This document shows positions 13,508 through 64,000 of a stretch of DNA of 64,000 nt, piece by piece. A program made the position numbers and the translations under genes. The notes beneath the pieces are model-generated. The model was not told the DNA's origin, made no database searches, and was given only the letters and a program-made list of their open reading frames with translations. The stretch's first letter is position 1. Each line of letters opens with the position of its first letter. The stretch comes from an uncultured archaeon (GTDB lineage: Archaea; Aenigmatarchaeota; Aenigmatarchaeia; CG10238-14; SCSR01): the NCBI GenBank assembly GCA_964373665.1, contig CAYJVM010000001.1, forward strand, positions 93,325 through 157,324, written 5' to 3'.

Positions 13508-13620
13508 GCTCCCTTCGTCTAGCCCGGTCAAGGATACAGCCCTTTCGAGTTGTCTCAGAAAGGTTTGATGCAAGATGATAAAGCAAGGCTGTAACGCGGG
13601 TTCAAATCCCGCAGGGAGCA
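13508..13620 (+). tRNA. tRNA-Glu(TTC) with ~38-nt intron
   Basis: The acceptor stem is GCTCCCT/AGGGAGC, the D-loop is AGCCCGGTCAA, the anticodon stem is CAGCC/GGCTG with loop CTTTCG, and the T-arm is GCGGG-TTCAAAT-CCCGC. The intron sits next to the anticodon loop. Confidence 0.75.
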
Positions 13621-29829: not shown

Positions 29830-30369
29830 ATGATTCTTGGGACAGATGTTCTGCTAAAGCTTGTGAAGGAACAAAATCTCGTGGAAAATCTTTCTGAAAG
29901 GGAGCTGACGAATCCTGAAGGCGCCGGCTTTGATTTAAGGTTAGGCGAGCTTTACATGATAACAGGAAAGGCACTGCTCGGTATCAGTGAGAGAGAGACA
30001 CCTGAGATAGAAAGCGTGGCCAAGTTCGATGACGGAAATAAAGTATTCCATACTATTAATCCGGGAGAGTTTTACCTTGCCAAGACGATTGAGAAGGTAA
30101 ACACACCGCAGGACATTACAATAAACTTCAAACCTAGGACGACAACTTTCAGGTCAGGTCTGCATATAAGGACGGGGAATGTCGCGCCCGGCTACAAAGG
30201 CGAGCTTACTTTTGCGATAAAGAACGACGGGCCGGTGCCTGTCACACTTGAGATGGGCGCGAGGATTGTTCATGCGCAGTTCCATCTTGTCGAAGGTAAT
30301 GTTAATTCTTATCGCGGCCAATGGCAAGGCGGGAGAGTAACGAGCGAGGGGAAAGAAAGGCAACTCTAA
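29830..30369 (+). CDS. dCTP deaminase/dUTPase-superfamily protein (divergent paralog)
   Basis: NPEGAGFDLRLGE and the following beta-rich core align motif-for-motif with the bona fide Dcd at 33925-34497. Confidence 0.6.
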   Translation: MILGTDVLLKLVKEQNLVENLSERELTNPEGAGFDLRLGELYMITGKALLGISERETPEIESVAKFDDGNKVFHTINPGEFYLAKTIEKVNTPQDITINFKPRTTTFRSGLHIRTGNVAPGYKGELTFAIKNDGPVPVTLEMGARIVHAQFHLVEGNVNSYRGQWQGGRVTSEGKERQL

Positions 30370-30554: not shown

Positions 30555-32315
30555 ATGAGCTACACAACTGTAATAAATGGGCTGGAGCTTTACAAGCATT
30601 CGGAATTCCCTGTAGTCATCGGCAATCCTAAGAGTAACCTGGCTCTGTGTGTCGTATGGCAGGATGCTGATAGAATACTCAATTTCCACCCCGAGTTCAA
30701 GGAAAAGTTCGCATTAATAGGCAATCTACGCTCTCCTTTCGGCGTCAACATCATCCTTTACAATCTCGCTCTTAATCCCCAGATAAGACACGTCGTCATA
30801 TGGGGCCCGGACAAGCTGAGCAACACGAACATAGGCCTTGCAGGAAAGAACGCCCTCATCAGCCTGTGGAGGAATGGTATTGACAGTGAGAAGCAGATAA
30901 TAGATACTCCATTCAAAATTGTCGAGGAAATAGACAGCACGGTTGTCCCGATAATTTTAAAGAACGTGCAGGTTCACGAGTCAAGCTCCCAGCAGCAGCT
31001 GGATTTGAACTCATTGCCAACTTTGCCAGATGATAGATATATGGATGCGATCATGTTTCCGGAATTCGTTGTGAAGGCGCCTGAGACGTTCCCTTCTGAA
31101 GGCTATACGTATCCGATAAGGGAGAAGAAAGGCGCGGATGCATTCTTGTCACTGCTCCACACGGTATGGAAGTACGGGCAAAAGTCGCCGATAGACAAGG
31201 ACGGGGAGGAATTGAAGGAGATAAGGGGCGCGATTGTCGTGATTGAAGGAGAAGACCCGGAGAATGTTCACTTGCCTGACTGGCTGCTTAATGCGAAAGC
31301 ACTTGGAATTTCCAAGGAAAGCTTGGACAACTACTATCAGACGCAGTTTTCGCCGGAATTATACAGGAAGGAAATTTTCAACGGGATAACTAAATTCGAG
31401 AGGCCTCGAGACTATTCATATCTTTATGCCGAACTGATGTATGCATTCCCGCGTCCGGAGGAACTGGACAACACTGTGAAGAAGCTTTTCAAGAAAGGAG
31501 GTTATGATGCTGCAAAAAGCTTCATCGTGATCAATTCAAAGCTCGACGGAGATGCGACGCAGGATGTCGTGGACAAAGTCGACCTCATTGAAATGCCGGA
31601 TGAGAAGAAAGTTGAAGTATTATTGGAAGGGCTGATTCCGGCTACTGACCAGATACAGAACGTCATCGACAGGATAAAGCGCAAGGATGTGGACTTGGAC
31701 AAGGAAGTAGTCCTTTGGGATGTCCGATACCACAGCAGGCTGGAAAGCGGAAGGCCGTGCCTGCTCAAGTTCTCCTTCACCGTTAGGAACGGCAAGGTTG
31801 ACGTGCATGTTTTTGTCAGGAGCCATGACATCGCGCAGGCATGGTTTTTCAATTTCTATGGGATAGCGAAATTGCTTGGCAGTGTTGCAAAGGAGACTGG
31901 ACATATGCCAGGGTATGTTATCATGGAATCGGAATCGGCGCACTTTTATCAGAGGGACTGGGAAACTGTTAAGAAGCTGTTGGAGGAACAAATTGATAAT
32001 AAGCAAATTAGGATGTACTTTGATCCTGAACTTGATTCGGATCCGCGCGGCGTTGTTAATATAGCAGTGGTTGATGGCAGCATAAAGATGAAGCTGCAGG
32101 ATTTGAAGACAGGTGATCTCTTGTTCGAAACTGAAGGAAAGACTGCAAAGGAACTAATGTACAAAATCAAGCACTTTCAGTTGATTTCTCGTACAGACCA
32201 CGCTGCTTTCGTAGGTTCGGAATTAGCCAAGGCGGAGATGTGTATGAAACTTGGGATAGAATACAAGTATGACAATCCTATCGAATTGCCTAGCGGAGAA
32301 AGGGTTGTAAGCTAG
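30555..32315 (+). CDS. 586-aa fusion of an unknown N-terminal domain with a thymidylate synthase (ThyA)-fold C-terminal domain
   Basis: RPCLLKFSFTVRNGKVDVHVFVRSHDIAQAWFFNFYGIAKLL...ESESAHFY matches the ThyA active-site region (PCH..QFYV...LSCQLYQRS.D..LG.PFNI.SY.LL........HIY), including the nucleophile Cys. Confidence 0.6.
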   Translation: MSYTTVINGLELYKHSEFPVVIGNPKSNLALCVVWQDADRILNFHPEFKEKFALIGNLRSPFGVNIILYNLALNPQIRHVVIWGPDKLSNTNIGLAGKNALISLWRNGIDSEKQIIDTPFKIVEEIDSTVVPIILKNVQVHESSSQQQLDLNSLPTLPDDRYMDAIMFPEFVVKAPETFPSEGYTYPIREKKGADAFLSLLHTVWKYGQKSPIDKDGEELKEIRGAIVVIEGEDPENVHLPDWLLNAKALGISKESLDNYYQTQFSPELYRKEIFNGITKFERPRDYSYLYAELMYAFPRPEELDNTVKKLFKKGGYDAAKSFIVINSKLDGDATQDVVDKVDLIEMPDEKKVEVLLEGLIPATDQIQNVIDRIKRKDVDLDKEVVLWDVRYHSRLESGRPCLLKFSFTVRNGKVDVHVFVRSHDIAQAWFFNFYGIAKLLGSVAKETGHMPGYVIMESESAHFYQRDWETVKKLLEEQIDNKQIRMYFDPELDSDPRGVVNIAVVDGSIKMKLQDLKTGDLLFETEGKTAKELMYKIKHFQLISRTDHAAFVGSELAKAEMCMKLGIEYKYDNPIELPSGERVVS

Positions 32316-32597: not shown

Positions 32598-32858
32598 ATG
32601 TATTTACTAGACTTGAGGGACAAAGTAAAAGAAAAATTCCATAAAATGGAGAAGAAAGAAAAGAAACAACTGGCTATAATAAATAAGAAGGTCCTACAGA
32701 TAAGAGAGGATCCACACAGATTCAAACCGTTAAGCAACGTGATGAAAAGGATAAGAAGGGTTCATATAGACAAGAGCTTTGTGCTCACATATTCAATCGA
32801 TGAGGCAAACAAAACTGTAATTCTTGAAGACTATGACCACCATGATAATATATATTGA
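32598..32858 (+). CDS. RelE/ParE (YoeB-like) family toxin
   Basis: REDPHRFKPL...IDKSFVLTYSIDEANKTVILEDYDHHDNIY matches the RelE-fold C-terminal pattern. Confidence 0.55.
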   Translation: MYLLDLRDKVKEKFHKMEKKEKKQLAIINKKVLQIREDPHRFKPLSNVMKRIRRVHIDKSFVLTYSIDEANKTVILEDYDHHDNIY

Positions 32859-32876: not shown

Positions 32877-33869
32877 ATGTTGTTTATGATAGTAAATGAT
32901 ATCACATATGGGAAGTTTGAAATTGACGGTGTCTTGGAAGAGCTGGTGAAATCCAAACCCCTACAAAGGCTCAAGAAAGTTCAGCAGTATGGAATACCTC
33001 CGGAATTCTACACATTTCCAGGATTTTCCCGATATGACCATTCAATAGGCGTCATGCTTCTGCTGAAGAAGCTGAATGCAAGTGTCGAAGAGCAAGCCAC
33101 TGGTCTGTTGCATGACGTCTCACACACGGCGTTTTCGCATGTTGTGGATTGGGTGTTAAACAATAGGCTTAAAGAAGATTACCATGATTCGATACAAAAG
33201 GACGTTGTCATGACATCTGGAATAGGGGACATTCTTGTAGAATTTGGTTTGAAAGTAGATAGGATAACTGACAAAATGAATTTCTCCCTTCTTGAGAGGG
33301 ACGAACCTGATTTGTGCGCTGACAGAGTTGATTATGCCCTGAAAGAGTTCCACTATTGGGCCGATCCGATGAACGTAAAGACTTTCGTAGATAATCTAAC
33401 ATCAGTTGGAAACAAGATAGTGTTCAAATCCAAAAATGTCGCAGAAATGTTTGGCAAGAGCTTCATGAAGTGCCAAAATGAGCATTGGGGAGGAGCGCAA
33501 GCCACAGTTAGATATCAATTGTTTTCAAAAGTATTGCTCATAGCACTGGAAAACGGCATAATAAAAATGGAAGATTTGAATAACGATGACGATTTTGTGA
33601 TGAAAAAATTAGTCAAATCTAACGAGGTGCGAATCAAGAGAATATTTAAGATTCTATCAAGCGACCTTAAGATCGAAATTGATGAAAAGACACCCCAATT
33701 GAAATTAAGGAAAAAGTTTAGATATGTTGATCCGTGGTACATGGAAAACAATGAAGTTTATAGGTTGAGCGAACAAGACGAAGAATATGAAAATTTCTTG
33801 GAGATGAATAGAGAATTAAATAAAAGGGGGATTAACGTTAGGCTGTCTGTTTCCATAGAAAATCTTTGA
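32877..33869 (+). CDS. HD-domain phosphohydrolase (dNTP triphosphohydrolase-like)
   Basis: The HD-domain metal ligands are present: YDHSIGV, LLHDVSHTAFSH and DRVDY. Confidence 0.65.
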   Translation: MLFMIVNDITYGKFEIDGVLEELVKSKPLQRLKKVQQYGIPPEFYTFPGFSRYDHSIGVMLLLKKLNASVEEQATGLLHDVSHTAFSHVVDWVLNNRLKEDYHDSIQKDVVMTSGIGDILVEFGLKVDRITDKMNFSLLERDEPDLCADRVDYALKEFHYWADPMNVKTFVDNLTSVGNKIVFKSKNVAEMFGKSFMKCQNEHWGGAQATVRYQLFSKVLLIALENGIIKMEDLNNDDDFVMKKLVKSNEVRIKRIFKILSSDLKIEIDEKTPQLKLRKKFRYVDPWYMENNEVYRLSEQDEEYENFLEMNRELNKRGINVRLSVSIENL

Positions 33870-33924: not shown

Positions 33925-34497
33925 TCATTTCCATCGAAAATCTTTGAAGATCTTACTCTCGTCCGACCCTTCCTGATTCTGATATTTCTCATCACCTCTT
34001 TTTCCATACGCCCTTTCCGGTGCGGATGTCAGTTTCGCAAGAGTAAGCTTTGCCACCCTCATTCCGGGATAAAGGGCAACAGGCATCTTTCCTATGTTGG
34101 CGATCTCCAAAACCAATATGCCTTCCCAACCAGGATTTATCCCTGCGGATGTTGTGTGCACGCTTATTCCCAATCTACCCAAGCTCGACCGCCCGTCAAT
34201 CAACCCCACCAGCTCCTCCGGTATTTTTATGTATTCCTTTACTGACGCAAGCACGAACTCGTCAGGGTGTATGATGAACGGCTTGTTGTCGTCTATAGTG
34301 ACAAGCTCCGTATAATTCTCCAGGGGCTGCTTAGGGTCTATGTACGGCACTGAGATGACTTTGAATATTCGGAACTCGTTTCCAAGGCGCAGATCTATAC
34401 CAGAAGGCTGTATCTGCGTGTCAGCGTCTTCCATGTTGTCTATCCTAAGCTTTCCGGAAGAAATGCATTCCTTGATGTCCCTGTCCGAAAGAATCAT
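33925..34497 (-). CDS. dcd: dCTP deaminase
   Basis: MILSDRDI, GIDLRLG, GRSSLGRLGISVH and PGWEG form the textbook Dcd pattern. Confidence 0.85.
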   Translation of the reverse strand: MILSDRDIKECISSGKLRIDNMEDADTQIQPSGIDLRLGNEFRIFKVISVPYIDPKQPLENYTELVTIDDNKPFIIHPDEFVLASVKEYIKIPEELVGLIDGRSSLGRLGISVHTTSAGINPGWEGILVLEIANIGKMPVALYPGMRVAKLTLAKLTSAPERAYGKRGDEKYQNQEGSDESKIFKDFRWK

Positions 34498-39590: not shown

Positions 39591-42500
39591 TTATGCCGCA
39601 TCTATGTCAGGTGCTCTTCCCCTATTCTGCTCAAGATACTTCATCAGTGCAGGTATGTGCTCAGGGGATATGCCTATGCCCGTCTGCCTTCCCATCTGGC
39701 TGTAAGCTTGCCTAACTTCAGTCTCAAGTCTATTCAAATATCTCACGCCATATTTGTCAAAGCCGAAATCGAATTGAATTATCTTTCCGCTGTCGTCGAA
39801 ATAGGCAGGAGTGTGTTCAAACCTTCCTTCATGCTTCTCCTTGATTTCGGATGGTATCTGGCTGTCCAGTACGCCTACATTGCAGTAAATCATTGTAGGT
39901 CCATCAATGCTGTATGCAGAGAATGGCCACACCTTGCCGCTTCTAGTTCTGTCGCCTCTTATTATAAGCGGCATTAGAGCAGTGTTCCATAGTTGGAAGG
40001 AATAAGGAACCTTTTGCTCTCCTTCCTTCAAAGTAGATCTGTAAACGTCAACGGTTCTTTGGAACTCCTTGTTTCCTCTTAATTTTGCCATGTCTTCTTC
40101 TGTCTTTCCTGCATGAGAATAATCCACATCAGTGAATCCTAAAGCGTCGTTAATCGCGACTACTTGATTCAAGTAGCCTTGGTATGCATCAGGATATCTT
40201 GCGGCTCTGTCCGTAGAGTCTCTTGCAACCAGATTCTTGGTTCCGTCTACAACTAGTATAACAGGTTGGTCGTTTGCTATTCTTGTTCTGTAACCTTTGA
40301 AAAGCCCGCTGTTTAAGACCTCTTTGTTGTTATGGCTTTCGGTCGACCCGACTTTAACTCCGATTATATAATCGACCCCCAGTGTATCATCGTCTGTTAG
40401 GGGCGCCACTGGAAGATACCCATAGCTTAGGTTCGGTGCGATAACTACATCCATACCAAGTTCTTGCGCTCTTACCTTTACACTTCTAACATAATCTTCA
40501 AGCAGCCGCACCTCGTATGCTGCACATTCGACTTCGAACTTGGAAAGCGCGTCGAAAGGTTCGACATCCGAATCTATGCTGAAAATCGTTTCGTACGCGG
40601 TGTATGTGATGTGGTTTTTCAAAAATCTTTTCACTTTCTCGTGGTCTACTATGTCCCTGAATCTCGTGTATTCAAGGTTCCTATGTAGCTCGTTTTCCGG
40701 ATCGAAGTTTCCTTCTCCAAATCCATTTAGTTCAGTTTTCCAGTCGGCAACAATTTTCCTCGGACTTTCTGCAGCCGACAAGCTGTGCATCAAATAAGTC
40801 GTGGGGATAATACCTTTTCTTTCCATTGATACAAAATATCTATGCAAGTCTCTGAATGTAGAGGCGCCAGTTTCCACTTCCCCGAACAGCTCTTCCCATC
40901 CGTCCAATGTGGAAAGTTCGTATGCTGTCCTGATGGCAGTTTTTGGCCTCTCGGACATATAGCCTTGGTAATGCTCGAATGCTGCCTCATGGACGCGCAG
41001 ACTTGAAACAAACTTGCCGAGAACATTAGTTTCATACGGATCCAAACCGTTTCTTAGAGCCTCTCTCACAAAAAGGTTGGTTGTCTGCTGACTAGCACCT
41101 TCAGTTGCGGCTACCAAGTTGCGAATGCTGGACGTTGCTGGATAGTTATCGAATGGGAAAATCCTCGCTACTTCCTCGTCACCAAGCGCCCTTAAATACG
41201 GCAACATATAACTTCTCGCTGAAGGTTTTTCCATCACCGCATGTATAACTTTCTGCTGCTCCTTTCTAACTTGTTCTTCAAACCTTTCTGGGTACGCAAT
41301 ATCTCCGACATCCGTTAGAAACGCTTCAAATTCTCTGAGCTCCTGTAGAAATGTCGGAAATCTATAGCTATGGTCTGTGATTAGCTTGTATCTGCGGTTT
41401 CCTATCATACCTCTGACATTAAAGCCGAACTGACCATTCCAATATTCTTGAACTCTCTCAGATCCTATTTCCCTTAAATAATCGAACGCCCACTCGCTGA
41501 TCGGCTCCATGCTCCCGCCGAAATGTAAAATGCTATTGGCCTCGTCCATTACGGCCTCTGGATTTCTAGACCCTTGCGCTATACTTTCAACTTCTTCCAT
41601 ATACTCTGCAATACCTCGCAAGTGGTTAGCAACAGCTTCAACTCCAGAAAACCCTTCAATGCCGTAAGCAATTTTTTGATCAAACATATCGCCATATTTT
41701 CTTATGACAGGCAGTTTGTCTTCCAACCCGAGTGAAGATGCAATTGCAGTCACTACACGGTCTCTGGTTGAATCCTTCTCTTCATCTGGAACATAAGTTG
41801 CATACGGCAGCAAATTCACTGCCAGCCCCAATGCAAAATACCTTTCCCTATCACTGCCATGAGTCATATAGTGCGATGCCATATTGAAAAGCGCCTCTCT
41901 GAATCCTGGGTTGTAACTGGGGTAATCCCAGTGGCTATCGTCGCGAATTACAGCACCTTCCTTAACCATTCGGACAGCATCCATCATGCCAGGCACCTTC
42001 AAGCCTTCAAGATATTTCAACTCTTCTCCATTCAACGAACCGATGAATTCTTCTGCCTTGCCTGAAAACGGCGCCCTAGTCCACTGCCACCTCCCTCTCC
42101 AGAGATTCATCACCGCATAAGGCAGATGCTCGCCTTGTTTGAATCGGTAAACTTTGTAACCTAACCTGCCGAATTCATCCCCTATGTGCTCACCTGATGC
42201 GGGTGGTACAACAAGCAGTCTGCTCCAAAGCTCTTCAAGTACATACCTATCGAATCCGGCAAGAGCATCTTCGCCGAACAATGCCTTCATTTGATCGTCA
42301 GATCTAGCAACTTCCCAGCTGTCAATGTCAAGAGAATTCACATCGACAGGTGTACCTACCCTTTGTTTAAGTTTGTCGTATCGGCTGGTAAATTCTACAC
42401 CAGGATCATATCTGGACATCTTATAGGTTTGCCTTAGCAAACTTACAACATCTGCGAGGCTTTCCGGTATTTCTACCCTATGTGAAAATCTGTATAACGA

Positions 42501-43538
42501 GTCTACAATATCTTGGAATATTTCGTCATGCCTTCTTCCATCATGACTAACATTCGGTAGATAACGAGTTACAAAATCTCGCAATCCATAAGGCAGCGCT
42601 TGAACTCTTTCATTCAAGCTGTCCAGCTGTTCGATTTCTTGTGGATACTTAAATCTAAAACTCAGCCAGTCAGCCTTTGGCAACTGGAAATGCATACCGG
42701 CAAAGACGAGTCTTACAGCTTCATCTACATCTTCTTTCTCATATCTTCTATCTTCTCTTTCATAGTTCCCATTTTTTATAACATCTGCAAAATCAGGTAA
42801 AACTTTCTTTTCGATATAACCATTCAACAGGGAACTTCTCTGAGAATCAGTCAACTTTGGCGATTCTCCTGTATTTTCCAATACACTCAATTGCGCATCA
42901 TATTCCGTCACCAGCCGCGATACAAGAATTGTGTAAAGTTCACGCTCCAGACTTTGGATATCAAAGCTTCTGTCTGAATAATAAGAACTGTACCAGCCCA
43001 TTTTTCCTGCTCTGCGAGTCGCAGCAAACAGCGCGTCTATTTTGACATTAAGAGAATCGACTTGCATCTGGTAACCTGCGGGGCGCGTGCGCCCAAGTTC
43101 TCTTGTTTCGTTGATCAAACGCTCAACCCTTTCATATACATCCCATTCGGCAGCGACCCCCACTTCTTCATAAATTCTGCGAACAGCAACTTCTTTTGCG
43201 TGCTTACCTCGGCTGGCTTTCGCCTTTGCAACAGCATTCATCCGCTTCAAGTATTCTAGCTTTTGCCGCATAGCTCCCGCTCCATCTGCTAAATCATCAA
43301 TACCTATAGTAGGATCAAACATGCGTCTTAGTGCCATCCTATCTTTCAAATAGGCCAACTCGAAGCATATGTATTTGTCAGCGCCATTGATTTCATCATT
43401 CCACGACTTTAGTACTTCAGCTATCTCATCGGGACTCGTTGATTCTGGATTAAAATCGGCCTGTAGTTCCGGCTCGGAAAATAATGCATTCGCTTCCTGG
43501 TATAATCTCTTTAAAATTTCATCACTCATCATTCCCAC
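39591..43538 (-). CDS. very large (1315 aa) protein of unknown function
   Basis: An uninterrupted 3.9-kb ORF with ~50% GC and codon usage consistent with its neighbours. No motif I recognise. Confidence 0.6.
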   Translation of the reverse strand: MGMMSDEILKRLYQEANALFSEPELQADFNPESTSPDEIAEVLKSWNDEINGADKYICFELAYLKDRMALRRMFDPTIGIDDLADGAGAMRQKLEYLKRMNAVAKAKASRGKHAKEVAVRRIYEEVGVAAEWDVYERVERLINETRELGRTRPAGYQMQVDSLNVKIDALFAATRRAGKMGWYSSYYSDRSFDIQSLERELYTILVSRLVTEYDAQLSVLENTGESPKLTDSQRSSLLNGYIEKKVLPDFADVIKNGNYEREDRRYEKEDVDEAVRLVFAGMHFQLPKADWLSFRFKYPQEIEQLDSLNERVQALPYGLRDFVTRYLPNVSHDGRRHDEIFQDIVDSLYRFSHRVEIPESLADVVSLLRQTYKMSRYDPGVEFTSRYDKLKQRVGTPVDVNSLDIDSWEVARSDDQMKALFGEDALAGFDRYVLEELWSRLLVVPPASGEHIGDEFGRLGYKVYRFKQGEHLPYAVMNLWRGRWQWTRAPFSGKAEEFIGSLNGEELKYLEGLKVPGMMDAVRMVKEGAVIRDDSHWDYPSYNPGFREALFNMASHYMTHGSDRERYFALGLAVNLLPYATYVPDEEKDSTRDRVVTAIASSLGLEDKLPVIRKYGDMFDQKIAYGIEGFSGVEAVANHLRGIAEYMEEVESIAQGSRNPEAVMDEANSILHFGGSMEPISEWAFDYLREIGSERVQEYWNGQFGFNVRGMIGNRRYKLITDHSYRFPTFLQELREFEAFLTDVGDIAYPERFEEQVRKEQQKVIHAVMEKPSARSYMLPYLRALGDEEVARIFPFDNYPATSSIRNLVAATEGASQQTTNLFVREALRNGLDPYETNVLGKFVSSLRVHEAAFEHYQGYMSERPKTAIRTAYELSTLDGWEELFGEVETGASTFRDLHRYFVSMERKGIIPTTYLMHSLSAAESPRKIVADWKTELNGFGEGNFDPENELHRNLEYTRFRDIVDHEKVKRFLKNHITYTAYETIFSIDSDVEPFDALSKFEVECAAYEVRLLEDYVRSVKVRAQELGMDVVIAPNLSYGYLPVAPLTDDDTLGVDYIIGVKVGSTESHNNKEVLNSGLFKGYRTRIANDQPVILVVDGTKNLVARDSTDRAARYPDAYQGYLNQVVAINDALGFTDVDYSHAGKTEEDMAKLRGNKEFQRTVDVYRSTLKEGEQKVPYSFQLWNTALMPLIIRGDRTRSGKVWPFSAYSIDGPTMIYCNVGVLDSQIPSEIKEKHEGRFEHTPAYFDDSGKIIQFDFGFDKYGVRYLNRLETEVRQAYSQMGRQTGIGISPEHIPALMKYLEQNRGRAPDIDAA

Positions 43539-54509: not shown

Positions 54510-54635
54510 GGGCCCGTAGCTCAGCATGGTAGAGCAGCTGATGCCAAGTTGAAGCTTTTAACCATGTGTGAAAAAGCATTGATTCCCAGATGAAAGGAAA
54601 CCAGTTGGTCGAGGGTTCAAATCCCTCCGGGCCCA
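54510..54635 (+). tRNA. tRNA-Gly(GCC) with ~50-nt intron (Trp not fully excluded)
   Basis: The acceptor stem is GGGCCCG/CGGGCCC, the D-arm is GCTC-AGCATGGTA-GAGC, the anticodon loop is ATGCCAA with U33, the T-arm is GAGGG-TTCAAAT-CCCTC, and the discriminator is A. Confidence 0.65.
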
Positions 54636-59135: not shown

Positions 59136-60125
59136 TTATTCTTCTACGATGGACAAATCCGCGACATTATTCCTTTCATCCATTTCATCTATGGAATTTT
59201 CGGGATCCAGAATTATTTGCAGCGTTGTAAAGTCTTCCTCGGCATAAAGGTTGCCGTAAATGATGCTGAGCTTGGCTCCAGGATCAATCGACAACGCTTC
59301 CTCGGTTTTCACAATCTTGTCGCCTGCTTTAATCTGCAAAATTGGGGGCTGTGAAGTCAAAAGACCGTCATTCTCTATTATGATGCTTATGTTCAGCAGA
59401 TAGTATGTCTGGACGAGCCTTTTCACGGTTGATTTGGTCGCATTGACTTGCACTATCCTGAGATCTGGCTTGGCCTCCATGCTATAAACATCATCCAATA
59501 TACTCGCTTCCCTTTCGGAGACCTCTATCGCTTTGCTTGAAGGCACTGTAAGAACAGGGTACATGATGCTGCTGCTATCCTGGGTATGCCTCAATCCAAG
59601 CGCGTGTCCAAGCTCATGCAGAGCCAGGTTTGTCATATCATTGTCATTTAATGCATTCCCTTCGGATCTTAGCAAGAGTTCTATATGCGCATGCCTGATA
59701 ATGCTACCATAGCTTGTGTTGACGAACTCCAGCTCGGTGTCCCCTATGTTGTCCAAAGAATTTTCTTTCAGTATTGTGACCCATTCGACAGTTATGTCTG
59801 CGTTCTTGTCATTGACCTCTGTAAGCTTTACCAATCCACCTGTTGCGTCCTCCCAGTTTTTCATGGCCCGTCTAAAGTCTTGCAGATAACTTGCATCAGA
59901 CCCGTCCAGGGATTCCGCATTTATGTAAACTGTCAGTGGAAAACCCGTCCACCTGGTTGCCGTCGCATTGCCTTCATCGATTTCAGGCAACGTGAAATTC
60001 GCAGGTCGGCTGACCTGCGGAGTCTGTGGAGTGTTCAGATCGACCACAAGTTCCCCTGCCCTATAGCCTATCGCAATTACTATAGCCAATGCAAGGACGC
60101 CAATTAAGGTATTGACAATGCTCAT
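59136..60125 (-). CDS. matrixin-like (M10) zinc metalloprotease with C-terminal CARDB-like domain
   Basis: ALHELGHALGLRH and a Met-turn SIMYP, preceded by an N-terminal transmembrane/signal anchor. Confidence 0.7.
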   Translation of the reverse strand: MSIVNTLIGVLALAIVIAIGYRAGELVVDLNTPQTPQVSRPANFTLPEIDEGNATATRWTGFPLTVYINAESLDGSDASYLQDFRRAMKNWEDATGGLVKLTEVNDKNADITVEWVTILKENSLDNIGDTELEFVNTSYGSIIRHAHIELLLRSEGNALNDNDMTNLALHELGHALGLRHTQDSSSIMYPVLTVPSSKAIEVSEREASILDDVYSMEAKPDLRIVQVNATKSTVKRLVQTYYLLNISIIIENDGLLTSQPPILQIKAGDKIVKTEEALSIDPGAKLSIIYGNLYAEEDFTTLQIILDPENSIDEMDERNNVADLSIVEE

Positions 60126-60158
60126 ACAGATAAATTACGCAAACCCTATAGATATAAT

Positions 60159-60536
60159 ATGGTCAAGCTTCCAGAGCTTAGGAAGGCAAGGGAGGAATTA
60201 AGAAAAAGGGCAGATGATCTCAGGAAGGCAGGGGAAGAAATGGCCAAAAGAAGCCAGGAGCTGCGAAGGCTGGGGGATGAGTTGAGGAAAAGCGCGAGAG
60301 TTAGAGAAGAGATTGTCACATTTAGGAAGGAGTTCCAGAGGAACATGGTTACGTTTTTGACAGGCGCGCTTGCCTTCGTTTTCGCCCTTACATGGAACGA
60401 TTTGATAAAGGAAACTATTATATTTTTCGTGCCGCCGTCCAAGGAATTGTTTTATAGGTATGCGACAGCTATCATCGTGACATTTGTCGTCATATTCGTG
60501 CTTTACATTTTGTCAAAGTTTAAAAGCAAGGATTGA
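60159..60536 (+). CDS. coiled-coil plus transmembrane hypothetical protein
   Basis: A charged helical N-terminus followed by two transmembrane helices. Confidence 0.35.
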   Translation: MVKLPELRKAREELRKRADDLRKAGEEMAKRSQELRRLGDELRKSARVREEIVTFRKEFQRNMVTFLTGALAFVFALTWNDLIKETIIFFVPPSKELFYRYATAIIVTFVVIFVLYILSKFKSKD

Positions 60537-60548
60537 TACTATTTCTTA

Positions 60549-60633
60549 GGGCCCATAGCTCAGCATGGTAGAGCAGCTCGCTCTTAATTTTGGGGTTACG
60601 AGACGGTCAAGGGTTCGAATCCCTTTGGGCCCA
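60549..60633 (+). tRNA. tRNA-Lys(CTT) with ~11-nt intron
   Basis: The acceptor stem is GGGCCCA/TGGGCCC, the D-arm is GCTC-AGCATGGTA-GAGC, the anticodon loop is CTCTTAA, and the T-arm is AAGGG-TTCGAAT-CCCTT. Confidence 0.7.
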
Positions 60634-60752
60634 CTGCCGTTTGGGTTTGAAACCCCTTTAAGGACACTGAATCCGTACTTCGATGGGTCCGGAGACGGAC
60701 CGGCGTCGACAGGGCCAGCATTGGACTCTTCGGTTTCAGCGGAGGGTCTGCC

Positions 60753-61217
60753 GTGTCGGTGCTGGTAGCGGGTACACGTCCAAGCTGGGTGAAGTCTCTG
60801 GTCGTATACACGCTGCCATGCGACCTCTCCGGCTACCTGTGGTATTTCGAAAGGTTCGCTCCTCGCTCGCTGGATCGTTTCTATACGGACGGGAAGGCTT
60901 GGCTCCCTGGTTTGGGGGACTATCTGAAGAGGTCGTTTCTAGACGACCTCTTCAACCACAATATCAAGCGAGAGATTGCGCGCCTAAGGATACCGATGCT
61001 GCTGATTCAGCCAGACAACGATGACGAGGTGCCAAAATGGTGCAGCGACCAAGCGTATGAGCTAAAACCAGAACCGAAGAACTATTTTCTCATCAAAGGG
61101 ACTCATACTATGCATTTGCGTGACGCCTCAGGTGGGCCAACTGGTTGGAACTTTGAACAGGAGGAAGAAGTGACCGGAAAGACGTTGGAGTGGTTCAAGA
61201 CAACGCTCTCAACGTGA
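60753..61217 (+). pseudogene. C-terminal fragment of an alpha/beta-hydrolase (dienelactone-hydrolase/peptidase-like)
   Basis: IPMLLIQPDNDDEVP and KGTHTMHL resemble the catalytic Asp and His blocks. No N-terminal nucleophile-elbow region is present. Confidence 0.4.
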
Positions 61218-61706
61218 GAGATAGACCGACCGTTGAAACTCGAGGACGTCAGACAAACATAGTGAGAATGGGCCGAGGATGGTGTCTACCTCCGTTTCAC
61301 CCAAGGCCATTCTATAGCCGCGCGAGTCATCGATCACGTGTATCCACTCGATGTACGGTACGTAACGAGGCAGGGCTGATCCTACAGCCTGGTACCCGGC
61401 CAATTGGCCACGGATGGTTAGGAGTTTGAGCGGGTTGGACAAGGTGAACTGGATGGCACTCTTAAATTCCCCGGGACGGCCGCCGAGCCGTGTCTGGTCA
61501 CGATATCCCTTTAGGTGGCCGAACAGGAAGTCCTCTCCGGGGAGAAGCGGGTGGGTTGATCCAAGCTGAATTTGGCGTCGATAACCCTCCTCGCTCATAA
61601 CATGCGTGGTTAGCAGCACCGGCTCGCCGTACTTAAACGGGTGCTTCATGAACATGTCGTCCACTGGGGAATAAAACGTCTGTAACAACCCTTCCATAAT
61701 AATCAA
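61209..61706 (-). CDS. hypothetical protein in GC-rich insert
   Basis: An ORF with ~58% GC. Confidence 0.3.
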   Translation of the reverse strand: MIIMEGLLQTFYSPVDDMFMKHPFKYGEPVLLTTHVMSEEGYRRQIQLGSTHPLLPGEDFLFGHLKGYRDQTRLGGRPGEFKSAIQFTLSNPLKLLTIRGQLAGYQAVGSALPRYVPYIEWIHVIDDSRGYRMALGETEVDTILGPFSLCLSDVLEFQRSVYLSR

Positions 61707-61724
61707 ATTATATTGTGCACTTGA

Positions 61725-62045
61725 CTATAAATACATTCCCTCGATAGGAATTACCTCGGTCGCGGGCGGAACGGAGCAATAGCTAACTGCCAAGACATCG
61801 CCAGCGGGCGTTCCGGCGACGAGAGATCGGACTAGATCGACCCGCTCTCCAAACGACCCATTGCCAGAGCAGCGTTCAGGTTCAGCCCCCTCCGTGCAGC
61901 TACCCAGACCACCGATGACGATGACCTTGCGGTCTTGCGCAGGGGCCTGAGTAAGACGTGCTTCCGAAACAAGGGGGAGGTGGAATGAGGATGCTGCCAA
62001 GAATGCTATGAAAAAAAGGGCCGCTCGAACACCGCGCTTCTCCAT
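61725..62045 (-). CDS. signal-peptide-bearing fragment, possibly the 5' part of a disrupted gene
   Basis: A signal peptide and a Cys-rich segment. It is on the same strand as the downstream ORF and in a different frame. Confidence 0.25.
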   Translation of the reverse strand: MEKRGVRAALFFIAFLAASSFHLPLVSEARLTQAPAQDRKVIVIGGLGSCTEGAEPERCSGNGSFGERVDLVRSLVAGTPAGDVLAVSYCSVPPATEVIPIEGMYL

Positions 62046-62090
62046 AGCCTTCCTCCCTGGTGAAATGATGAGATTCCGGGGCTCGATGTA

Positions 62091-62705
62091 CTATAAACCG
62101 AGGGTGAGTATGAAAAAGACCACGTGCGTGGGAAAAATGGGTACCAAGAGTGACAGAAGTGCGACAAGAGTAGCTTGTGGAGCACTTAGGCGGTCCATGA
62201 TAGCAAAACCGCGGTAGCTCAGGCGGAAGGACCACACGAGAGACCCTAGCTGAGCAAGTAACAGAGTCCCCTGAACAATCTCTATGGAAAGTGGACCGCT
62301 AACGGTATTCTCGGACAATGAGAACATGAGAACCGTTATGAAGACCCAATGAAAGACGACGAAGGGGGCTAGGCCGAAAATGACCGCTTGTGCTGTATTT
62401 GCAACCTCAAGTCTGCCCATTGCAAACTTCACGACAAAAGCGACGAGCGTTGCAGTAGCGTAGAGGAACAGTCCGCTGCCCAGCGGGATTAGGGGTACGG
62501 GGGCCCAAGTCTCGTGATGTGCCAAGAACGAGGGACCCGCAATGAGCGTGAACAGTAGAGAGGTTGCGAGCAGCATGCCTGCCAAGTAGATAAATGCGGA
62601 CCTAGTCGATCGGCGCTGTTCAGAGCCTGGGAAAAACCGGGAAAACGCAGCTAAGAGGCGGCCGATATAAGGAGTTTGTTTGGAGGCTAAGGAGGTGGTG
62701 GACAT
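62091..62705 (-). CDS. polytopic membrane protein
   Basis: Five to six transmembrane helices; GC-rich. Confidence 0.35.
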   Translation of the reverse strand: MSTTSLASKQTPYIGRLLAAFSRFFPGSEQRRSTRSAFIYLAGMLLATSLLFTLIAGPSFLAHHETWAPVPLIPLGSGLFLYATATLVAFVVKFAMGRLEVANTAQAVIFGLAPFVVFHWVFITVLMFSLSENTVSGPLSIEIVQGTLLLAQLGSLVWSFRLSYRGFAIMDRLSAPQATLVALLSLLVPIFPTHVVFFILTLGL

Positions 62706-63789
62706 AATACAAGTAGGGTTTCGACAAGCTTAAAGATAAGGGTAGGTTAGCACTATCGGACGTTTGCTGCGGATGTCACCGTGACCAGGAAGGCTCTTCG
62801 TCCTTCGCTTGGTTGATCGTGAGGTTCTGAAGGTTGGCCGCAGCAGCCTGAGCCACACCCCACACTTGATTGCGAATTCCTCTGCGGGGCAAGCGTCCGG
62901 CTCAGACAGGATCAGGCGGCGGGCGAACGGATAGCGATGCAGCCGCTGGCGAGAAAGGGTATTCAGGTGGTAGGCGGCGGGTAAGCACGCATGGTTAAGT
63001 TTCGGGGCTTCTTATAGGGGATAAACGTCGACTAGCCGTCTAGGCCAAGCGAATAGACCAACCCTCGCCTACTGGGGAAACGAATCGCCTGTCTTTGCTC
63101 ACTGAGGCAGCAAGGCAGGCGATCCTCTTCGTGGTTGTGAGAATGCCGCGAGCAATGTTTCGGGCCTGCCGACGAGTGACCGGGTGCCCTATTCGACAAT
63201 TGTAAGCCAGAATCAGGCCAGCCAACTGGTCACTTAGATGTTGATGACAAGTCATAAAAGTACTATGGCTTCCATGATATATATACTTTTCAGGGCCTGT
63301 ACAACGCTCCTGCCTGACTGCAGGATACTTCAATGGTGATCCGTCCAGGCGCAAGAAGAATTGCCCGCTATGGAGGACAGCCCCACTCCTGTCGCGTTCC
63401 CGCTCATCGGTTGAGATTGGCGACCGATAGTGCTTGCCTGGAAGGAAGAAACGTGGGATTCATGGTTCTCGTTCCTTTGCGGTCTCGGGGCGCCGTCGAG
63501 TACGTAGGCCGACAAGAGATGCCGCTGGGAATCAGGCGCTGCCGCGGGTGGGCTGGCTGGCTCTCTATGCCCACTGGGACTTCTGCCGATTATCGACCAA
63601 GAAAGCACTCACCATCTCTGGCTGGCGGCCTCTCGGTTACTTGGTCATCGTCTTCGCGGAGGTCGGACCCATCATAGTCCGATCGGATCGGATGTCAACC
63701 CATCTTCGGTGGGTCGACTGGCCCTTCTCCACGCCGAAGCGGGTCAGATGTGGCGCCGAGCGCGAGATTCAAACCTGTTCCTGTGCCGG

Positions 63790-63803
63790 TCCCTTTGGGC
63801 CCA
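63790..63803 (+). repeat. direct repeat identical to the 3' end of tRNA-Lys (tccctttgggccca)
   Basis: A 14/14 match to 60620-60633. It is preceded by gtgccgg and marks the return to AT-rich sequence. Confidence 0.7.
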
Positions 63804-64000
63804 TCGACCTGGATAATCAAATATCTTTATACAATCTAAATTACTATACATGAGAATTCCTATAAGCATTTTATTTATAATATCCTTTTTGATAATACCC
63901 GTGGCACATGCTGAAGTTGATAGCATACCTTTAACATTCGTTTCCGAAAACTCCAATGGCACACTCTTCAACCTTGGTGAATTAAAAAATTATGAAGTTG

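Follow-up and report, generated by a model that had tools for sequence, protein, structure and literature searches.

Thymidylate synthesis is an essential, supposedly well-understood process and a drug target, and it is carried out by two enzyme types, ThyA and ThyX. ThyA (EC 2.1.1.45) includes a minimal archaeal or methanogen type (TIGR03283). A thymidylate synthase (TS) with an added module for handling its cofactor has its classical precedent in the protozoan fusion of dihydrofolate reductase (DHFR) with TS, in which a junction peptide links the N-terminus of TS to an alpha/beta domain related to the pterin cofactor. The biochemistry of methanogen ThyA, cofactor specificity included, is poorly known (PMC9012536). 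Here, we analyzed a gene for a 586-amino-acid (aa) protein at positions 30555–32315 (plus strand) of a 64,000-nucleotide stretch of DNA from an uncultured Aenigmatarchaeota archaeon (contig CAYJVM010000001.1, positions 93,325–157,324), referred to below as the window. As judged from its sequence, this protein is very probably a working ThyA-type TS converting dUMP to dTMP, and it consists of three modules: an MtrA-fold domain, a TS fold with a helical insertion, and a PterinBD-DUF4346 domain. It resembles the minimal archaeal ThyA in its fold, in its catalytic Cys within a Pro-Cys motif, in its R-S-x-D, Asn, and His-x-Tyr set, and in a pathway context that includes dCTP/dCMP deaminase and thymidylate kinase. 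In contrast to that enzyme, the clade of the window protein has lost the inter-subunit Arg pair and gained a 67-aa helical insertion, DUF4346 replaces the C-terminal lid region of canonical TS, and the MtrA-fold domain stands ahead of the enzyme. The arrangement is reminiscent of DHFR-TS, but here the N-terminal domain (N-domain) has an MtrA fold and a second accessory domain is found at the C-terminus. No DHFR domain (PF00186) was detected in the protein by Pfam or NCBIfam, and Foldseek matches to DHFR-TS chains had low TM values (0.27–0.31), consistent with a match to the TS part only.

The open reading frame (ORF) starts with ATG and lies exactly at 30555–32315, as the first-pass annotation of this DNA had stated. 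A public sequence collection holds a protein identical to it, and homologues of 81–47% identity over the full length have a common start and end with the window protein. Given these full-length relatives with the same N- and C-termini and the identical database protein, we consider the gene and its boundaries to be real. The AlphaFold model of the window protein had a mean pLDDT of 88.3 and a pTM of 0.59, at which the relative placement of domains is uncertain. It contained, in order, an alpha/beta domain, a low-confidence linker segment (residues 175–182, pLDDT <50), the TS fold with three extra helices at 302–360, and three strands followed by two helices, consistent with the three-module map drawn from profile matches. 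In this map, all on the plus strand, residues 1–145 (30555–30989) form the MtrA-fold, Rossmann-like accessory domain, residues 146–182 (30990–31100) a linker with columns variable among relatives that ends in conserved F168 and P180-S-E182 before TS, residues ~183–490 (31101–32024) the TS fold of minimal archaeal type, and residues 496–575 (32040–32279) the PterinBD-DUF4346 domain. The first-pass annotation had described only two parts, a ~300-aa N-terminal domain matching no family and a ThyA core within the C-terminal ~200 aa. The motifs that it quoted are present (the RPCLL, SHD, and HFY blocks, and the N-terminal GNPKSNLALCVVW...WGPD at residues 23–86), and a TS with an intact Cys was correctly recognized. 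The TS domain, however, extends over a much longer region than proposed, the supposed ~300-aa domain is really a ~145-aa MtrA-fold domain, a linker, and the first half of TS, and the last ~90 aa, corresponding to PterinBD-DUF4346, had been missed as a third domain. The observation that extra sequence roughly doubles the size of TS was borne out, and this sequence is a conserved module across relatives.

We examined the TS domain within a comparison set of 145 full-length representatives, which fall into a long clade that includes the window protein (57 sequences) and a short clade (88 sequences). Pfam Thymidylat_synt (PF00303) matched residues 364–483 with 61.7 bits (cutoff 24.3). The NCBIfam model for archaeal TS, TIGR03283, matched residues 188–471, corresponding to model positions 3–200/201 (E 2e-23), with a score below its equivalog cutoff (82.9 bits vs. 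174.55; short-clade relatives scored 147–164 bits). In an hhalign comparison with E. coli ThyA, residues 361–490 aligned to 106–241 with a probability of 96% (E 3e-9), so that the alignment of the Cys nucleophile to ThyA, put forward as a test in the first-pass annotation, holds. Residue pairs were C402=C146, R422=R166, S423=S167, D425=D169, N433=N177, H463=H207, and Y465=Y209, and the corresponding motifs of the window protein are GRPCLL (399–404), RSHD (422–425), and AHFY (462–465). Tyr94 of E. coli corresponds to Y291 via a short-clade relative that aligns to the E. coli TS from residue 91, while, of the folate-binding Trp80 and Trp83, W243 in 'PDW' looks like Trp83 by eye only, the N-terminal half of TS lying outside the profile alignment (361–490). 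Cys402, the catalytic nucleophile (codon at 31758–31760, plus strand), sits in the Pro-Cys motif P401-C402 and was invariant in 145/145 representatives, and the dUMP-binding and catalytic set of TS was invariant or nearly so among them. Foldseek searches with the window model matched only TS-fold proteins (E ~1e-13 to many TS structures), with the best target coverage for the minimal TS-fold entries 9iqu and 9iqc. The assignment as TS is based on these Pfam and NCBIfam matches, the profile alignment to E. coli ThyA, the invariance among the 145 representatives, and the fold recovered by Foldseek. A dCMP-modifying enzyme (hydroxymethylase or hydroxylase), raised as a candidate by the top Foldseek match (9iqc/9iqu), was rejected given the invariant Asn433 and the dUMP → dTMP → dTDP context. 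Asn at this TS position points to dUMP rather than dCMP, as dCMP-specific TS-fold enzymes have Asp there.

The long clade is set apart by a three-helix insertion of 67 aa (residues 296–362; 31440–31640, plus strand) located between the TS blocks 'AFPRP' and 'DQI', which was found in 57/145 representatives and not in the other 88/145. Its helices (302–326, 332–344, and 349–360) were modeled with pLDDT >90. Additionally, D-L-D-K-E at residues 380–384 (31692–31706, plus strand) takes the place of the canonical 'D-S-R-R' of TS in both the hhalign and the family alignments. This motif was present in 56/57 long-clade sequences, with both Arg residues gone, whereas the short clade has (T/S)-R-R-A-V. 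In ThyA, the D-S-R-R arginines bind the dUMP phosphate across the dimer interface (Arg126'/Arg127'). Where this inter-subunit pair was lost, the long clade carries Arg59, in a phosphate loop of the N-domain, and Arg224, in TS. We considered the loss of the pair and the gain of R59 and R224 as evidence of contact between the N-domain and the dUMP site, and rejected it as such; the exchange represents a single clade split with no independent recurrence, and is a weak lead only.

By sequence profiles, the N-domain of the window protein belongs to MtrA at the superfamily level. NCBIfam NF002126, an MtrA subfamily model, matched residues 14–140 (E 5e-11), and Pfam MtrA (PF04208) matched residues 49–119 with 18.2 bits, under its cutoff of 25. 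As a single query, the N-domain matched the MtrA structure 5LAA weakly (E 0.08), and a 27-sequence family profile matched the MtrA structures 5LAA (E 7e-5), 5L8X (E 6e-4), and 8Q3V (E 0.02) in the PDB. The sister protein P0210 passed the Pfam MtrA threshold (57.5 bits) and had an MtrA match with an E value of 2e-15. Its AlphaFold model (pLDDT 88, pTM 0.71 despite a 45-residue disordered linker) superposed on MtrA structures with TM 0.74–0.80 and an rmsd of ~2.3 Å, and had no other significant PDB match. The conserved core of the N-domain comprises F18, C32, W35, G56-N-L-R59-S60, G63, N65, I67, N70, N74-P75, W83, L88-S-N-T91, G94, W105, and E125. In MtrA, His84 ligates the cobalt and forms a hydrogen bond with Glu54, while the nucleotide tail of cobalamin is held by Lys52-Thr53, Gly57, and Asn64 and sandwiched between Tyr18 and Val61 (PMC4915002). 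The tail-pocket positions are conserved in the window family (F18=Tyr18, R59-S60=Lys52-Thr53, G63=Gly57, I67=Val61, and N70=Asn64). His84, on the other hand, is absent, its position lying opposite T91 in the single-sequence alignment, L95 in the family-profile alignment, and Ser in P0210, and Glu54 falls opposite a gap. No conserved His was found in the N-domain among the family alignments, including that of the 145 representatives, and the loop that carries His84 in MtrA has been remodeled (nine residues in the window protein, three in P0210, and five in MtrA). Given that the tail-pocket residues are conserved while His84 and Glu54 are gone, the N-domain, as read from these alignments, has an MtrA fold that kept a pocket for an aromatic plus an anionic group and lost the cobalt ligation of MtrA. 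Compared to MtrA of the methyl-tetrahydromethanopterin:coenzyme M methyltransferase and its cytoplasmic homologues (5LAA and 5L8X), the window family thus shares the Rossmann-like fold and the nucleotide-tail pocket residues but differs in its lost cobalt ligands and remodeled ligand-bearing loop. It also has no membrane anchor, with TS rather than a transmembrane helix following the N-domain, is encoded among nucleotide-metabolism genes instead of an mtr operon, and occurs in hosts that are not methanogens.

The C-terminal domain was identified by PterinBD-DUF4346 (PF14251), which matched residues 496–572 with 50.5 bits (cutoff 29.6, E 3.6e-13). D496, R498, G499, H549, A560, E561, and D573 are invariant, and the modeled secondary structure consists of three strands and then two helices. 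DUF4346 begins a few residues past the end of the TS homology, which corresponds to E. coli residue 241. In canonical TS, the C-terminal segment that closes over folate lies after that point. The same domain also matches the C-terminal ends of a dihydropteroate synthase (DHPS)-like family, TIGR00284, and of a 390-aa 'MtrA' model, NF002128. Among solved structures, DUF4346 had no sequence-profile match at E ≤10 and none by Foldseek with a TS-free model, and we found no paper on DUF4346/PF14251 in the literature.

The two accessory domains also occur together without TS. An exhaustive profile search with the N-domain family against 1.84 billion representatives retrieved 405 clusters at 50% identity, and among the best 150 of these, scanned locally with hidden Markov models, most had the same three-domain architecture. 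Proteins with MtrA-like and DUF4346 domains in the same order, with shared invariant residues and no TS between the halves, include P0210, P0133, and P0198; such proteins pass the Pfam MtrA threshold, and NF002128 covers both domains. P0210 (273 aa), which lacks TS entirely, was encoded on three contigs, ahead of a thymidylate-kinase gene, and its closest relatives are ~470-aa three-domain fusions with the database annotation MtrA + Thymidylat_synt + DUF4346. We searched for a separate TS gene beside P0210, and the upstream ORF turned out to encode an unrelated coiled-coil protein. In P0244 and P0220 (393–394 aa), only the first third of the TS fold remains between the N-domain and DUF4346 (E 7e-7), and the catalytic half including the Cys is lost. 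P0244 (393 aa, L074:8001-9182), possibly a pseudo-enzyme that has kept a function, is encoded on an archaeal contig of 538 kb, flanked by genes for a dCMP-deaminase/kinase fusion and for thymidylate kinase. W35, G63, N70, N74, D496, G499, H549, A560, E561, and D573 are invariant in all clades as well as in the TS-less forms, and these residues fall in the MtrA tail-pocket region and in DUF4346. Given the TS-less two-domain proteins, the coverage of both domains by NF002128, the pTM of P0210, and the shared invariant residues, the accessory pair seems to act as one unit. Given that TS-dead and TS-less forms keep the pair beside thymidylate genes, its sequence and context also indicate a thymidylate-linked role independent of TS catalysis in the same chain. 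The architecture is best explained by insertion of the TS catalytic domain into an older two-part protein composed of the MtrA fold and DUF4346. We found no convincing stand-alone N-domain, as short matches were mostly truncated or frameshifted fusions ending in the first TS residues, and one such candidate, P0070, has the look of an assembly artefact or of an internal deletion.

When one genome per species was scanned, 69 fusion loci were recovered in ~69 species-level genomes, with carriers nearly all labelled as Patescibacteria of the Candidate Phyla Radiation (CPR) or as DPANN archaea. CPR carriers included Paceibacterota, Uhrbacteria, Wolfebacteria, Roizmanbacteria, Ryanbacteria, and others, many of them labelled Saccharibacteria, while DPANN carriers included Aenigmatarchaeota, Micrarchaeota, and Woesearchaeota. 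At six loci (L011, L018, L048, L050, L062, and L067), carriers were labelled Gammaproteobacteria, Mollicutes, Weeksellaceae, or Methanosarcinales, which probably reflects mis-binned or mislabelled metagenome-assembled genomes (MAGs) or possibly horizontal transfer. The extra sequence is conserved in many genomes, which goes halfway towards the ground for refutation named in the first-pass annotation, a known extension of archaeal ThyA in many genomes, but a functional description was not found in the literature. The three-domain architecture is present in sequence databases, partly labelled there. No paper describing an MtrA-TS fusion was found, and a survey of fusions in Archaea lists other Mtr fusions and not this one.

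The gene neighborhood places the fusion in nucleotide metabolism. Immediately upstream in the window is a gene of the dCTP-deaminase/dUTPase family (29830–30369, plus strand; DCD model PF22769, E 7.6e-22), and a second dCTP-deaminase paralogue (33925–34497, minus strand; PF22769, E 7.5e-46) is located 1.6 kb downstream. The two paralogues are less than 4 kb apart, and the upstream one is more diverged (78 vs. 156 bits on PF22769) and scores on a dUTPase model too. By sequence, this upstream neighbor would supply the dUMP branch. The window is syntenic with an Aenigmatarchaeota MAG (L001) that shares an A-type ATPase, L10e, and DCD. Across 70 loci, neighbors included DCD/dUTPase (26/70), thymidylate kinase (25/70), and dCMP deaminase (7/70), often a few bases from the fusion gene and on the same strand. 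Among the 124 ORFs directly adjoining the fusion genes, a Pfam scan recovered 15 thymidylate kinases, 14 DCD, five FNR-type NAD-binding oxidoreductases, and four dCMP deaminases; no folate enzymes were among the recurrent families in these ORFs, and no recurrent genes for B12 uptake or remodeling were detected in the same scan. Given the recurrence of DCD/dUTPase, thymidylate-kinase, and dCMP-deaminase neighbors, it is well supported that the fusion protein belongs to a dUMP → dTMP → dTDP pathway cluster.

Apart from the FNR-type family (PF00175), no redox- or cofactor-related family recurred beside the fusion. FNR-type genes occurred in 7/70 loci, all of the short clade and not in the window. 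At three loci (L027:7503-8165, L033:7503-8165, and L035:7526-8188), an FNR-type FAD/NAD(P)H oxidoreductase of ~221 aa was encoded 3–5 bp downstream on the same strand. At locus L004, a gene for a PduO-type cobalamin adenosyltransferase was located 4.5 kb from the fusion. In a Wolfebacteria genome (L041:4549-8065), thyX (234 aa, RHR..S motif), tmk, the intact three-domain ThyA fusion, and dcd formed one same-strand row, an apparent case of both thymidylate synthase types in one operon. We also looked for a classical DHFR beside the fusion gene. A single-query tblastn restricted to flanks detected no E. coli-type FolA in ~78 loci or in the 64-kb window; folA occurs in ~55% of CPR genomes (PMC11974145), so its absence from the flanks says little.

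We tentatively favor the possibility that the MtrA-fold and DUF4346 domains together form a non-catalytic clamp that would bind a small molecule, most likely scavenged folate. The reaction itself is expected to be that of an ordinary ThyA, in which Cys402 would attack C6 of dUMP and Asn433 would read the uracil, and a methylene donor of the pterin type, most likely host-derived, scavenged 5,10-methylene-tetrahydrofolate, would provide carbon and hydride. DUF4346 could cover or hold the pterin, given that it starts where canonical TS has the C-terminal lid that closes over folate, and its company in pterin-enzyme families (TIGR00284), along with this position, also suggests the pterin side. The MtrA-fold domain, given its retained pocket for an aromatic base and a ribose-phosphate, could grip an aromatic-plus-anionic group, either the p-aminobenzoate-glutamate tail of folate or a nucleotide. 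Organisms that import a scarce cofactor and are unable to make it would benefit from such tight retention. CPR genomes encode glyA (81%) and folD (80%) and lack most cofactor biosynthesis (PMC11974145), and a clamp would suit carriers that run folate one-carbon metabolism in this way. The suggestion in the first-pass annotation of an added substrate-delivery or second catalytic module remains a fair hypothesis.

Several observations weigh against a folate clamp. Its geometry is deduced from domain order and one pTM value, and the origin of the Pfam name 'PterinBD' was not traceable in the literature. The TS-dead (P0244 and P0220) and TS-less (P0210) forms lie beside tmk and dCMP-deaminase genes and not folate genes, a context that a nucleotide-linked or autonomous role fits better than a pure folate holder, and the conserved pocket appears to be of the nucleotide type, while folate is not a nucleotide. 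Moreover, hhalign places E. coli D124-S-R126-R127 opposite D380-L-D382-K383 of the window protein, and dUMP binding would be unlike that of textbook ThyA. A credible, if unlikely, alternative is that the MtrA tail pocket binds a pyrimidine nucleotide, either dUMP/dTMP or dTTP/dCTP as an effector, and serves in substrate capture, in substituting for the lost partner-subunit arginines to complete the active site, or in allosteric regulation of thymidylate synthesis. In MtrA, base, ribose, and phosphate sit in the corresponding pocket, relatives without a working TS still adjoin tmk and dCMP deaminase, the neighbors that speak for this alternative are all nucleotide enzymes and none a folate enzyme, and the long clade combines the absence of Arg126/Arg127 equivalents with Arg59 in the phosphate loop and Arg224 in TS. 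However, this swap corresponds to one non-recurrent clade split and is weak evidence of contact, and a nucleotide-binding module would leave DUF4346 and its link to pterin-enzyme families unexplained. To our knowledge, ThyA is not allosterically regulated by dNTPs.

Cofactor recycling within the chain, with the MtrA-fold and DUF4346 domains as a new dihydropterin reductase or electron-delivery module that regenerates tetrahydrofolate from the dihydrofolate made by TS, is an unlikely reading. Such a protein would correspond in function to the DHFR-TS of protozoa, and in some lineages an FNR-type flavoprotein would pass on electrons from NAD(P)H. ThyA is coupled with DHFR as a unit, and reductases other than FolA are known, namely FolM and one that is flavin-dependent and fused to DHPS (PMC9931769; PMC1971073). 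The FNR-type genes directly downstream of the fusion, the lack of a detected FolA, the retention of the module in TS-dead forms, implying that it has its own function, and the invariant Asp, Glu, and His of DUF4346, of the kind that bind or protonate pterins, are all in line with recycling. On the other hand, folA is present in 54.8% of 4,581 CPR genomes and CPR FolA is functional (PMC11974145), so many carriers probably have an ordinary DHFR, and the FolA search was a single query against flanks. No dinucleotide- or flavin-binding motif is found in the domain, neither NAD(P)H nor flavin is a known ligand of the MtrA fold, and the FNR-like neighbor occurs in only ~10% of loci.

Distinctly unlikely, in our view, is a ThyA-scaffold enzyme with a ThyX-like outcome, in which the MtrA fold would carry a cofactor for redox chemistry or methyl transfer, either a histidine-free cobamide or a flavin-type group, and DUF4346 would hold the pterin, with no net release of dihydrofolate or with its re-reduction on the same polypeptide; in some lineages, the adjacent FNR-type reductase may recharge the cofactor. 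A strictly corrinoid-dependent variant seems quite improbable. There, the MtrA-fold domain would bind a base-off cobamide that lacks a histidine ligand, in the manner of corrinoid iron-sulfur proteins, and either methyl-Co(III) would serve as donor to Cys-activated dUMP or Co(I) as reductant, giving dTMP without dihydrofolate. Cobalamin binding is the only known function of the fold, the conserved residues are those contacting the nucleotide tail of cobalamin, one alignment has Ser or Thr at the position of His84, an FNR-like reductase would suit reductive activation, and the PduO-type gene of L004 is in keeping with corrinoid use. However, the His84/Glu54 pair that defines cobalt ligation is gone and the His84 loop is remodeled, Asp425 (=Asp169) and the full ThyA catalytic set are kept as for ordinary methylene-pterin chemistry, and genes for B12 uptake or remodeling do not recur nearby. 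We know of no report of corrinoid-dependent TS chemistry. It is likewise very unlikely that the accessory domains are ligand-free scaffolds for folding, oligomerization, or assembly with neighbors such as Tmk and DCD. The uncertain inter-domain geometry of the model (pTM 0.59), the frequency of fusions in reduced genomes, and the altered dimer-interface motif of the long clade, which could reflect a changed quaternary structure, would fit this explanation. Against it, the invariant polar residues (W35, S60, N70, N74, D496, R498, H549, E561, and D573) group together in loops and at pocket positions, as is typical where ligands bind, and are conserved across clades at only ~30% identity and in TS-less forms.

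Other features of the window were noted as well. Directly downstream of the TS gene, an 86-aa ORF (32598–32858) resembles ParE/RelE-type toxins (PF05016, E 9e-5), and it is followed by a gene for a 330-aa HD-domain protein (32877–33869) with a faint likeness to dGTP triphosphohydrolases, which may be a further nucleotide-pool enzyme of the cluster. A 1315-aa ORF lies at 39591–43538 on the minus strand. Rfam detected tRNAs at 13508–13620, 54510–54635, and 60549–60634 (113, 126, and 85 nt), which include unusually long ones and probably contain introns; ARAGORN missed two of the three and assigned a four-base anticodon (ttaa) to the third. The G+C content was 0.52–0.53 at 60001–64000 and ~0.42 elsewhere in the window, and Rfam detected no rRNA in this segment and one tRNA only.

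In the preferred reading of a folate-holding clamp, as in its alternatives, the window protein represents a large, conserved, and apparently unstudied ThyA variant that is a common form in ultra-small CPR bacteria and DPANN archaea, which depend on cofactors and nucleotides scavenged from their hosts. An accessory pair that only holds folate would illustrate how these cells get by when cofactors are scarce. If the pair instead recycles the cofactor or uses a corrinoid, this would be new enzymology and would give a first function to DUF4346 and to the histidine-free branch of MtrA. The clade-specific loss of the inter-subunit Arg pair would demonstrate that there is more than one way to build a TS active site. 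Finally, a ThyA scaffold with a ThyX-like outcome, if true, would amount to a third route to thymidylate and a novel role for the MtrA fold, both specific to CPR and DPANN symbionts.

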